From: Waddliaceae bacterium
GTDB taxonomy: Bacteria; Chlamydiota; Chlamydiia; Chlamydiales; SLFE01
Reading direction: 5' to 3'
Assembly (NCBI GenBank): GCA_963783885.1
Contig: CAWAPJ010000010.1
Coordinates: 1-64,000, forward strand
Length of the DNA stretch: 64,000 nt
Below are positions 28,697 through 30,780 of this stretch, piece by piece; the stretch's first letter is position 1, and each line of letters begins with the position of its first letter. Below the pieces are notes generated by a model. It did no database searches, was not told the DNA's origin, and saw nothing but the letters and a program-made list of their open reading frames with translations. The translations under genes were made by a program, and so were the position numbers.

Positions 28697-28854
28697 ACAA
28701 ATTTCCTTTTTTTATTTTAGTAATAATACTAGGAAAATTTGTTTTTGTAAATATTAATTCTTATTAATAAAAATATTTTTACAATTACGATTGGCGTTGT
28801 TGCATAAATCACCACTGAGACCACCGAGCTCACTGAGAGAATATGAGAGAGGAA

Positions 28855-29262
28855 TTAAATGATTAGACGCCTAATCCCATTTTTTAGAAGTTTTACATTG
28901 AAATTGATGAGCAAACCTCTGCCACCACCATTATGCTTAAGATAGGATAGAAGTTGGGCCTCATGAACAGGCAAGAGATTGGCCACAGATTTTATCTCCA
29001 AAATAACCTTATCTTCCACTATCATATCGATCCGGTAGCCTGAGTCTAGCTTTTTATCACGATAAATAATAGGTACTGGTATCTGCCGGTTAACTTTCAA
29101 ACCCGCAAGGTTCAACTCGTAGCAAAGACAAGTTTCGTATGTCGATTCAAGCAAGCCTGGACCTAATCTTCGATGAACTTCAATCGCAGCACCTATGATT
29201 TCCCCTGTTAAAGGGTCATTTCTTTTTTGGTTGGCTTCTTCAGTTGTGTGGGTAATAGTCAT
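28855..29262 (-). CDS. GxxExxY protein (PD-(D/E)XK nuclease-like)
   Basis: IIGAAIEVHRRLGPGLLESTY, YRIDMIVEDKVILEIK, HEAQLLSYLK, GLLINFN. Confidence 0.93.
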   Translation of the reverse strand: MTITHTTEEANQKRNDPLTGEIIGAAIEVHRRLGPGLLESTYETCLCYELNLAGLKVNRQIPVPIIYRDKKLDSGYRIDMIVEDKVILEIKSVANLLPVHEAQLLSYLKHNGGGRGLLINFNVKLLKNGIRRLII

Positions 29263-29346
29263 CTTTTCTCCAAAAAGGGCGAATGCGACCTTGCTGACAA
29301 ATATCTAATACTCTAATTTTTAGTTGCAACAAATTGGAGGATCAAG

Positions 29347-30291
29347 ATGAAGGCAAAATATCGCATTCGCAACTGGAACGACTATAACAAATCTCTTATT
29401 CAAAGGGGAAGCATAACTGTTTGGTTTTCTGAAGATGCCATCAAGAAGTGGACGGCTCCAAAAGAAATAGGAAAAAAGGGGCGTCCAAAACTCTATTCTG
29501 ATGACGCTATTCTCACCGCGCTCATTATTCGATCGGTTTTTCATCTTCCTTTGAGAGCACTCCAAGGATTTTTGACATCTCTTGTCATGATTTTATCTGT
29601 TGGTTTATCGATTCCTTCTTATACTCAAATTTGTCGGAGAGCTAAGTTGTTGGGGCAAGAGTTGAAGAAACTTTCGAAAAAAAAAGTCACCAATATTGTA
29701 ATCGACTCAACCGGTTTGAAAGTATACGGAGAGGGTGAATGGAAAGTTAGGCAGCATGGAATCAGTAAAAGACGAACATGGAGAAAGCTCCATCTGGCAG
29801 TCTGCCCTGACTCTCATGAAATCATTTTCGAAATTCTTACTGAAAATAACGTTGCAGATTGTGAAGTGTATCCAAAACTTCTCGAGGTAATGCCGAAATC
29901 AGTTAAGCGCACATATGGAGATGGGGCTAATGATACTAAGCGATGCTATGCTGCAAATGTAGAACACGGCTCAATTCCTATTATTCCACCCAATAGGAAT
30001 GCTGTTTTTCGAGAAAACATATCTCCTTCTTGGAAGATGCGGAATATCAGTTTGCTGGAAATTTCAGGTTTAGGAGGTGATGATGATGCAAGAAAATTAT
30101 GGAAAAAGTTGAAAGGTTATCATCGTCGATCACTTGCAGAAACAGCCATGTTTAGATTTAAACGATTCTTTGGAAATGATTTAAGAAGTAGAACTCTGGA
30201 AACCCAAAGGGCTGAATCAAGGGCAAAATGTGAAGCACTAAATATAATGACAAAGCTGGGAATGCCTGAAAGTGAATTAATAGCAGCTTAA
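29347..30291 (+). CDS. IS5 family (IS903-like) DDE transposase
   Basis: NWNDYNKSLIQRGS, IDSTGLKVYGEGEW, RRTWRKLHL, GDGAND, GYHRRSLAETAM. Confidence 0.95.
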   Translation: MKAKYRIRNWNDYNKSLIQRGSITVWFSEDAIKKWTAPKEIGKKGRPKLYSDDAILTALIIRSVFHLPLRALQGFLTSLVMILSVGLSIPSYTQICRRAKLLGQELKKLSKKKVTNIVIDSTGLKVYGEGEWKVRQHGISKRRTWRKLHLAVCPDSHEIIFEILTENNVADCEVYPKLLEVMPKSVKRTYGDGANDTKRCYAANVEHGSIPIIPPNRNAVFRENISPSWKMRNISLLEISGLGGDDDARKLWKKLKGYHRRSLAETAMFRFKRFFGNDLRSRTLETQRAESRAKCEALNIMTKLGMPESELIAA

Positions 30292-30357
30292 ATCAAATCT
30301 CTCATATTCTCTCTGTGCGCTCTTGTGAGCTCTGTGGTTAATTACGCAACAAAGCCA

Positions 30358-30780
30358 TTACGATTTTTTCTTCTTTTTTTTGGGTGGGGAGAAGGCCAGA
30401 ATCAGGGCCGAGGCGTTGCTGGCGACAGCAGGATTTTTGTCTTTTTGGAGGATTTCCGCAAGCTTCACTCCTTCCTCCGATCGTCCAGCCATGAATAGCG
30501 CTTTGCACAAGTTGATGAGTGCGGGTGTGTGGTCCCCTTCAAGCTTTAGGGCGTTTTCCAAAGCCTTGACCGCTTCTTCCGGCTGGTCGATTTCGACATA
30601 GATGGCGCCGAGCATTTGGGCGTCGTAAATATTTTCGGGATCGAGAATGACAAGGGCCTTAAAAAAATCGAGGGCAATGTCGTACTTGCCCTGCCGAATA
30701 TAAGCATAACCTGTAAAACGGAGTTCTTCGAGCTGGTCGTCATTCCACCCCAGTTTTTCCATCCAGTTGATATTATCCAT
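30358..30780 (-). CDS. TPR protein, chlamydial CT274-like (T3S chaperone-like)
   Basis: GYAYIRQGKYDIA TPR repeats; syntenic between dnaA and rsmH. Confidence 0.8.
   Translation of the reverse strand: MDNINWMEKLGWNDDQLEELRFTGYAYIRQGKYDIALDFFKALVILDPENIYDAQMLGAIYVEIDQPEEAVKALENALKLEGDHTPALINLCKALFMAGRSEEGVKLAEILQKDKNPAVASNASALILAFSPPKKKKKKS

Follow-up and report, generated by a model that had tools for sequence, protein, structure and literature searches.

We analysed a stretch of 64,000 nucleotides from a Waddliaceae bacterium (GenBank assembly GCA_963783885.1, contig CAWAPJ010000010.1, positions 1 to 64,000; hereafter the window) and focused on an insertion sequence (IS) that carries a gene of the GxxExxY family next to its transposase gene. 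By direct reading of the sequence and a pattern search, the element was located at 28793..30356 (1564 bp), between two abutting copies of a 9-bp duplication. The left copy of this target-site duplication, ATTACGATT, lies at 28784..28792 and the right copy at 30357..30365, and both touch the ends of the element exactly. There are three matches to ATTACGATT in the window compared to 0.6 expected, and three or more matches were reached by 2 of 100 shuffles. The right copy holds the stop codon (30358-30360, minus strand) of the neighbouring tetratricopeptide repeat (TPR) gene. An exact 9-bp duplication next to IS903-like termini, overlapping and preserving the stop codon of the neighbour, had been proposed in the first-pass annotation of this DNA and is confirmed at these coordinates.

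The termini of the element form an imperfect inverted repeat with 81% identity, as seen from pairing the two ends. The left repeat (28793..28850, plus strand) has 58 nt and starts with an IS903-like core of 18 nt, GGCGTTGTTGCATAAATC, followed by an extension of 40 nt, and the right repeat (30298..30356, minus strand) has 59 nt and starts with GGCTTTGTTGCGTAATTA. Inside the left end, the subterminal motif CACNGAG occurs three times at a spacing of 9 nt (28813-28819, 28822-28828 and 28831-28837; overall 28813..28837, plus strand); the corresponding repeats of the right end are CACAGAG at 30330-30336, CACAAGAG at 30320-30327 and CACAGAG at 30311-30317.

Between the terminal repeats lie two open reading frames (ORFs) only, which are divergent and 84 nt apart. 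The GxxExxY gene, also known as PDDEXK_3, is at 28855..29262 on the minus strand and encodes 135 aa; it is intact, as had been read earlier from the letters, and only 4 nt separate its stop codon from the left repeat. The transposase gene (29347..30291, plus strand, 314 aa) stops 6 nt short of the right repeat. The divergent intergenic region (29263..29346, 84 nt) contains the leader of the transposase gene and aligns with the left-end leader of relatives that have only a transposase. The element has a G+C content of 39.8% compared to 45.3% for the window, where it is present in a single copy.

The transposase matches the profiles PF13737 (E 1.5e-33), PF01609 (E 2e-19) and NF033579, 'IS5 family transposase' (286 bits, cut-off 140). 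It shares 44% identity over 312 residues with the transposase of IS903B from a Klebsiella plasmid record and 46% with elements annotated as ISSod12, IS903B and ISVa2 in RefSeq plasmids, which have the same pair of Pfam domains (PF13737 and PF01609) and 9-bp duplications. Residues D120, D192 and E265 are intact and invariant in all 32 aligned transposases, and they align with the D, D and E of IS903B, which we take to be the catalytic triad of IS903. At the two ends, the outermost 18 nt agree with the IS903B repeat GGCTTTGTTGAATAAATC at 16 of 18 positions on the left and 14 of 18 on the right, as counted by eye. The element thus has the type of DDE transposase, the D/D/E residues, the GGC-starting ends of the 18-bp kind and the 9-bp duplication of the IS903 group. 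It differs from the usual form of the group, which has a length of about 1.05 kb and a single ORF, by its 1564 bp and its two conserved ORFs. Compared to IS903B itself (1057 bp, ends of 18 nt, no second conserved gene), the ends are extended to about 58 nt with three subterminal repeats at 9-nt spacing. We conclude that window positions 28793..30356 hold an insertion sequence of autonomous type that belongs to the IS903 group (IS5 family) and forms a two-gene mobile unit.

One residue sets the transposase of the window apart. Position 195 (codon 29929-29931) belongs to the DGAYD motif, three residues past the second catalytic Asp, and is Asn in the window, whereas it is the otherwise invariant Tyr in the 31 other aligned sequences, in the copies in another genome and in IS903B. 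Because of this replacement, the window copy, though structurally complete and flanked by a perfect duplication, may be impaired or inactive.

The GxxExxY protein matches its family over the full length, both in PF13366 (E 7e-42, 142.9 bits, cut-off 22) and in TIGR04256 (148.1 bits, cut-off 35). The family is very large, with 21,986 representatives at 50% identity (E≤0.001), and the one statement on its function that was found in print, a table row for PF13366, reads 'Unknown' and also notes 'multiple transfers' (PMC3424549). In the window protein, the name-giving motif reads G36-L-L-E39-S-T-Y42, and D79, E89 and K91 are the putative PD-(D/E)XK residues. All 32 close homologues have E39, E89 and K91, and 31 of them have D79. 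In an alignment of 82 sequences that reaches down to 44% identity, G34, G36, E39, Y42, D79, E89 and N120 are invariant and K91 is found in at least 90% of the sequences.

From the 82 sequences, we obtained an AlphaFold2 model with a mean predicted local distance difference test score (pLDDT) of 90 and a predicted template modelling score of 0.82. It replaces an earlier model from the 32 close homologues, which had a pLDDT of 70 and gave meaningless fold matches. The model shows an alpha/beta core, in which helices 17-33, 39-52 and 98-110 are arranged around a mixed sheet. The top-ranked fold matches in the Protein Data Bank are all PD-(D/E)XK nucleases, with template modelling (TM) scores of 0.4-0.46 and none at E≤0.001. 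The best of them is lambda exonuclease (E 9e-3, probability 0.96), and Cas4 SSO0001, the nuclease domains of AddAB and AdnAB, and the archaeal resolvase Hjc, which is of similar size, are also among the matches (TM 0.42-0.46, root-mean-square deviation 4-5 Å over about 105 columns). Thus, the candidate catalytic residues D79, E89 and K91 are conserved, but the support from the fold stops short of E 0.001. A sequence search of solved structures gave only RelE (E≥0.4), which was taken as a chance match.

Longer members of the family give a further hint at how the protein might work. A search for longer forms gave 253 matches, of which 120 were listed. Tandem double GxxExxY proteins, or proteins with PF13366 only, make up 114 of these 120 as well as the best-scoring representatives, which fits with a protein that works as a dimer. 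Among proteins P0241-P0257 and P0391-P0490, many are tandem duplications of the domain with 260-340 aa. The remaining six of the 120 are read-through fusions to NusB, a FabA/FabZ-like protein, QueC, an aldehyde dehydrogenase, a SIS protein and an RND pump. The window protein has no match among 5027 PADLOC models or in PHROGs. A structure prediction for the complex of transposase and GxxExxY (score 0.00, mark 0.32) speaks neither for nor against binding.

To find further copies, we scanned a collection of species-representative genomes with the alignment of 32 transposases, which yielded 572 confirmed matches; the best 80 were kept as loci. Eight of these belong to a single Waddliaceae metagenome-assembled genome, CAVYRW01. 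In seven of them (L001-L006 and L008), the match to the window begins at 28793, has 98.4-98.7% identity and ends at 30356, give or take a few chance bases. These seven hence share both end positions with the window element, which is far beyond chance. All seven carry the GxxExxY gene, with 97.8-98.5% protein identity. Furthermore, five of the seven are flanked by perfect and mutually different 9-bp duplications (GGAAAGTTG, AATTCAAGG, GCATCGAGA, CTTCTAATT and TTAAGATTT). The two others, L005 and L008, have no matching 9-bp duplication, as expected from recombination between copies, and their four flanks do not pair with one another; the transposase of L008 is frameshifted. The flanks of L005 and L008 also hint at rearrangements between IS copies that involve further, unrecovered copies.

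The eighth copy, L012, is decayed and has its own 9-bp duplication, ATATATAAT. At 1389-2786 of its contig (CAVYRW010000004.1), an IS256-family element with an 8-bp duplication (TTCGTATG) lies inside the GxxExxY gene and encodes a Mutator-family transposase of 409 aa (PF00872, E 3e-119). The remaining N-terminal part of the GxxExxY gene has an in-frame stop, and the IS903-type transposase gene is frameshifted. Furthermore, L012 is a mosaic: identity to the window element is 99.4% over the left 350 bp and only 79% over the right 1235 bp, which could reflect recombination between subfamilies or a chimeric assembly.

The GxxExxY gene is hence intact in seven of the eight CAVYRW01 copies and interrupted in one; all eight have the same outer left end, and six have a duplication of their own. 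The earlier proposal that the transposase and GxxExxY genes move together as one 1564-bp unit is borne out by these copies, and the different duplications that the first-pass annotation suggested looking for at other copies are present at six sites of CAVYRW01. Each full copy has 20-21 differences from the window element, two or three of them in the GxxExxY gene, which is too few to estimate dN/dS. Of seven insertion sites examined, six are in DNA of 10-37% G+C, and most insertions leave long reading frames uncut. The element mainly inserts into AT-rich DNA between genes, and its copy number has risen recently in at least one related Waddliaceae genome.

CAVYRW01 also contains the orthologous site without the element. 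When L003 is compared to the window, its positions 6502-6608 correspond to window positions 28712-30357 and hold only a short spacer with a single CTTACGCTT. The flanks of this empty site are 88% and 90% identical to window positions 28293-28711 and 30358-30691, and the site is about 2.5 kb away from one of the genome's own copies of the element. The element itself is 98.6% identical, compared to 88-90% for the flanking genes, which suggests that it moved horizontally and recently between two Waddliaceae lineages. For chlamydial genomics, this difference points to mobile DNA having been exchanged recently among obligate intracellular bacteria.

Outside CAVYRW01, the same architecture is found in a more distant element. 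L007, a 2245-bp contig of an uncultured bacterium, contains an element of 1570 bp whose transposase is 68% identical to that of the window and whose divergent GxxExxY gene encodes a protein of 66-70% identity. We compared the proportions of nonsynonymous and synonymous differences (pN/pS) between the window and L007 and obtained 0.241/0.82 for GxxExxY and 0.222/0.786 for the transposase, with saturated synonymous sites. Since pN is low and equal, the GxxExxY gene is constrained like the transposase gene over the whole divergence between the window and L007. Both genes are under equal purifying selection across the lineage, and GxxExxY is thus not a casual cargo gene.

The presence of GxxExxY follows the relatedness of the transposase. 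Among the 80 best of the 572 loci, ten have a transposase that is at least 68% identical to that of the window, and in nine of these GxxExxY is present at the same divergent position; the remaining locus, L010, is truncated at the 5' end, with homology starting from window position 29518, and cannot be scored. By contrast, none of the 70 loci with a transposase of at most 60% identity carries the gene, and no copy of the same lineage without the gene was found among the best 80 loci. We examined eight of the relatives without GxxExxY (L009, L011, L013, L014, L017, L018, L020 and L021). Six of them (L009, L011, L013, L014, L018 and L020) have transposases of 50-60% identity, lengths of 1091-1138 bp and terminal repeats of 16-23 nt, whereas the repeats of L017 have 37 nt and the ends of L021 are unclear. 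Perfect 9-bp duplications are found in L011 and L014. These transposase-only elements share with the two-gene elements the core repeat GGC(C/G)TTGTTGC(G/A)TAA and a homologous leader of about 85-100 nt before the transposase start.

The difference between the two kinds of elements can be localised. In the two-gene elements, the 18-nt left core repeat and the transposase leader are separated by an additional block of about 470 bp, made up of the 40-nt extension of the terminal repeat and then the GxxExxY gene. The 40-nt extension is mirrored at the right end, where it takes up the stretch from the core repeat to the transposase stop codon. We infer that the lineage arose from a transposase-only IS of about 1.1 kb by gaining a module of about 470 bp, namely the extension together with GxxExxY. 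Ends of about 58 nt are present in the window element, L012 and L007, with identities of 72-93% across all pairs of ends. Three CAC..GAG motifs at 9-10-nt spacing occur in both ends of the window element, in the diverged right end of L012 and in both ends of L007, where the spacing of the triple repeat is 9 nt. The long termini are, on this comparison, conserved across the two-gene lineage. We also considered a concerted evolution of the two ends of an element and dropped this idea, as pairs of ends within an element are no more alike than pairs between elements (0.72-0.93).

Protein clusters from short contigs extend the picture. The best 120 transposase clusters have identities of 61-93% to the window protein and the best 120 GxxExxY clusters 69-98%, and both are mostly found on contigs of 1-2 kb (P0001-P0240), as expected for repeats. 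For 25 of the 120 transposase clusters, the length of the longest contig is exactly that of a GxxExxY cluster, compared to a mean of 7.4 and a maximum of 14 when the lengths are offset.

We therefore describe the element as an IS903-group variant with a conserved second gene and long ends that has not been described before in the searchable literature. No element of this layout was found there; ISfinder was outside this search, and there may be an unpublished database entry. The IS903 group is a textbook case of insertion sequences with one gene, and how its members cut the second strand and balance simple insertions with cointegrates is a long-standing question. The lineage offers a natural experiment on both. 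In addition, it provides the first tight and conserved genetic partner for the GxxExxY/PDDEXK_3 family and a simple two-gene system in which the function of the family could be found.

Members of the family also occur outside insertion sequences. We examined three free-standing homologues in annotated records (37-55% identity), and all three are co-oriented genes in narrow gaps between housekeeping genes: between radA and a gene for an FAD-dependent protein (L082), between ade (adenine deaminase) and a mannose-1-P guanylyltransferase gene (L083), and between fabD and fabG (L084, 3028-3456, in a plasmid record of Sphingomonas parapaucimobilis). The case between fabD and fabG is an insertion, as eight other listed records that match both genes in two pieces (H35-H43) span 943-1036 bp compared to 1379-1473 bp of the query, i.e. 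about 435 bp less, and fabD and fabG are annotated 30 nt apart in Rhizobium indigoferae. Presence and absence of the gene at a conserved site was thus seen for this free-standing relative; among the 80 loci, it was not seen for the IS-borne gene. These insertions suggest that the GxxExxY family as a whole is mobile, and together with the IS-borne partner they would point to a role of the whole family in mobile DNA.

It is close to an even call, leaning slightly to the doubtful side, whether GxxExxY is a nuclease that serves the element; it would then be a dimeric, Mg-dependent endonuclease. A possible analogue is Tn7, in which TnsB is responsible for cutting at the 3' ends and TnsA, which resembles restriction endonucleases, for cutting the 5' strands, so that transposition is cut-and-paste (PMC10761935). 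In the mechanism that we favour by analogy, the DDE transposase of the present element would cut and join the 3' ends, and GxxExxY would cut the other, non-transferred strand (5') at the donor junctions or else the branched strand-transfer intermediate, which would result in simple insertions instead of cointegrates, with a division of labour like that of TnsB and TnsA. The extended ends with their three repeats at 9-nt spacing would serve as extra protein-binding sites for the two-protein complex. A helper nuclease is plausible because IS903 can yield both simple insertions and cointegrates. Like Tn7, the element combines a DDE transposase with a small protein of predicted restriction-endonuclease fold and has repeated subterminal sites. 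In this specific form, as a two-protein transposase that evolved independently of Tn7 and in which GxxExxY cleaves the second strand or a branched intermediate, we consider the model unlikely. If it were true, it would give a first function to a family of about 22,000 clusters at 50% identity, and the free-standing GxxExxY genes between housekeeping genes would be structure- or junction-specific nucleases of mobile origin.

Several observations weigh against a nuclease that helps transposition. The nuclease activity, the end binding and the effect on transposition of GxxExxY are predictions by analogy. GxxExxY has no match to the TnsA family in Pfam (PF08722), as PF13366 is its sole match there, and no TnsA structure is among the listed fold matches of the model, none of which reaches E≤0.001. 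Furthermore, the transposase is of the IS903 type and not of the TnsB type, the two ORFs leave no TnsC-like ATPase or target selectors, and the duplications have 9 bp, compared to 5 bp in Tn7. The IS903 group works without a partner, as seen in 70 of the best 80 loci and in IS903B itself at 1057 bp. The extended ends may also be independent of GxxExxY, since the two ends within an element resemble each other no more closely than ends from different elements do. A fusion to a DDE transposase domain is absent from all 120 listed longer GxxExxY proteins (of 253 matches). The contig pairing described above is a heuristic in which the gene layout is inferred from lengths; about 7 of the 25 pairs are expected by chance, and the identities of the paired clusters show no significant correlation (Spearman 0.24, p 0.24). 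In addition, 38 of the 120 transposase clusters are only found on contigs below 1437 bp, which are too short for both genes, and gene-less close variants may therefore exist. Lastly, the free-standing members of the family resemble self-inserting DNA in their behaviour and thereby speak for a different explanation.

According to that explanation, which we regard as rather unlikely but keep as the main, serious rival because the free-standing members resemble self-inserting genes, GxxExxY is a selfish coloniser. A homing-endonuclease-like gene would have inserted just inside the left end and then ridden along, serving its own spread, for instance by cutting gene-less IS copies so that repair inserts the gene. 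This would account for the position of all three free-standing homologues in housekeeping gaps, with the insertion between fabD and fabG, for the six read-through fusions to housekeeping enzymes among the 120 listed longer forms, for a very large and patchy family with the 'multiple transfers' noted above (PMC3424549), and for the compact block of about 470 bp between core repeat and leader. However, a fixed homing gene is expected to decay, whereas GxxExxY is intact in seven of eight copies of one genome, in the window and in L007, with a pN/pS equal to that of the transposase. Neither was a gene-less copy of the lineage found in the genomes searched, and the simple insertion of a gene does not account for an extension that is mirrored at the right end. 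The first-pass annotation had called the element a passenger-carrying IS; the structure agrees with this description, but 'passenger' is doubtful for a gene that is constrained like the transposase, and GxxExxY is perhaps a coloniser and not a helper.

Alternatively, the gene could be cargo that is useful to the host, such that the benefit of a defence, DNA repair or addiction factor keeps the IS copies. PD-(D/E)XK nucleases are common in defence systems, and the fold matches of GxxExxY include Cas4. A passage of one paper places a GxxExxY-domain gene at the expected position of cas4 beside a CRISPR-associated reverse transcriptase (PMC8934634). Yet, the lack of matches to PADLOC models and PHROGs, the absence of a possible partner (for instance an antitoxin, a methylase or a sensor) from an element whose other ORF is the transposase only, and seven near-identical copies in one genome, which indicate a proliferating element and not a selected single cargo gene, make this quite improbable. 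Hardly credible is the one-off capture of a neighbouring chromosomal GxxExxY gene via a surrogate left end, for which the first-pass annotation had considered a transposase-only left end near 29290-29330. It could explain the additional 470 bp or so compared to the transposase-only relatives, whose left core repeat also shows a weak alignment to part of the 84-nt intergenic region. However, all eight CAVYRW01 copies have the GxxExxY gene and use the outer left end, L007 has the same architecture, both genes are under strong purifying selection, and many diverged homologues of both are found on IS-sized contigs. The capture is refuted in practice by the CAVYRW01 copies and the equal constraint. 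We also dropped the idea of a relic of an ancestral left repeat between the genes, as about half of the core positions match, which is not above AT-rich DNA; the would-be relic overlaps the ribosome-binding region of the GxxExxY gene.

Two further known systems resemble a nuclease gene carried by an IS. IS200/IS605-type elements have the accessory nuclease TnpB, for which a role in retaining the element, not in the chemistry of transposition, has been reported. They are likewise minimal insertion sequences with a second, conserved non-transposase nuclease gene, but TnpB is a large, RNA-guided protein with a RuvC fold, whereas GxxExxY has 135 aa, is of the PD-(D/E)XK type and comes with no sign of a guide RNA. 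Transporter IS are defined as IS copies with passenger genes unrelated to transposition (PMC3129680). The present element agrees with them in having an extra gene inside the IS ends; it differs in that this gene is conserved across the lineage and constrained like the transposase, which fits an accessory or parasitic gene better than cargo.

Finally, we looked at the surroundings of the element. The right neighbour is the TPR gene at 30358..30780 (minus strand). The first-pass annotation called it CT274-like; the protein is rich in TPR repeats and resembles a type III secretion chaperone, but it scores 64.7 bits against the SctY chaperone model, under the cut-off of 70. No Rfam family was found in the element or nearer than position 37902, and no tRNA in or adjoining the element. 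On the left, a region of about 550 bp without a long ORF (27526-28078) separates an RND-type transporter gene (24478..27525) from a gene with a 2H-phosphoesterase domain (28079..28696, minus strand), and it has no Rfam or tRNA match. Promoter and terminator scans of the region gave nothing above the shuffled background. The region's best promoter-like match (10 of 12 positions; 28723-28751, minus strand) is between the left end of the element and the start of the 2H-phosphoesterase-domain gene. This gene has probably kept its own promoter after the insertion, and its transcription could be increased by read-through from GxxExxY, which faces outwards.

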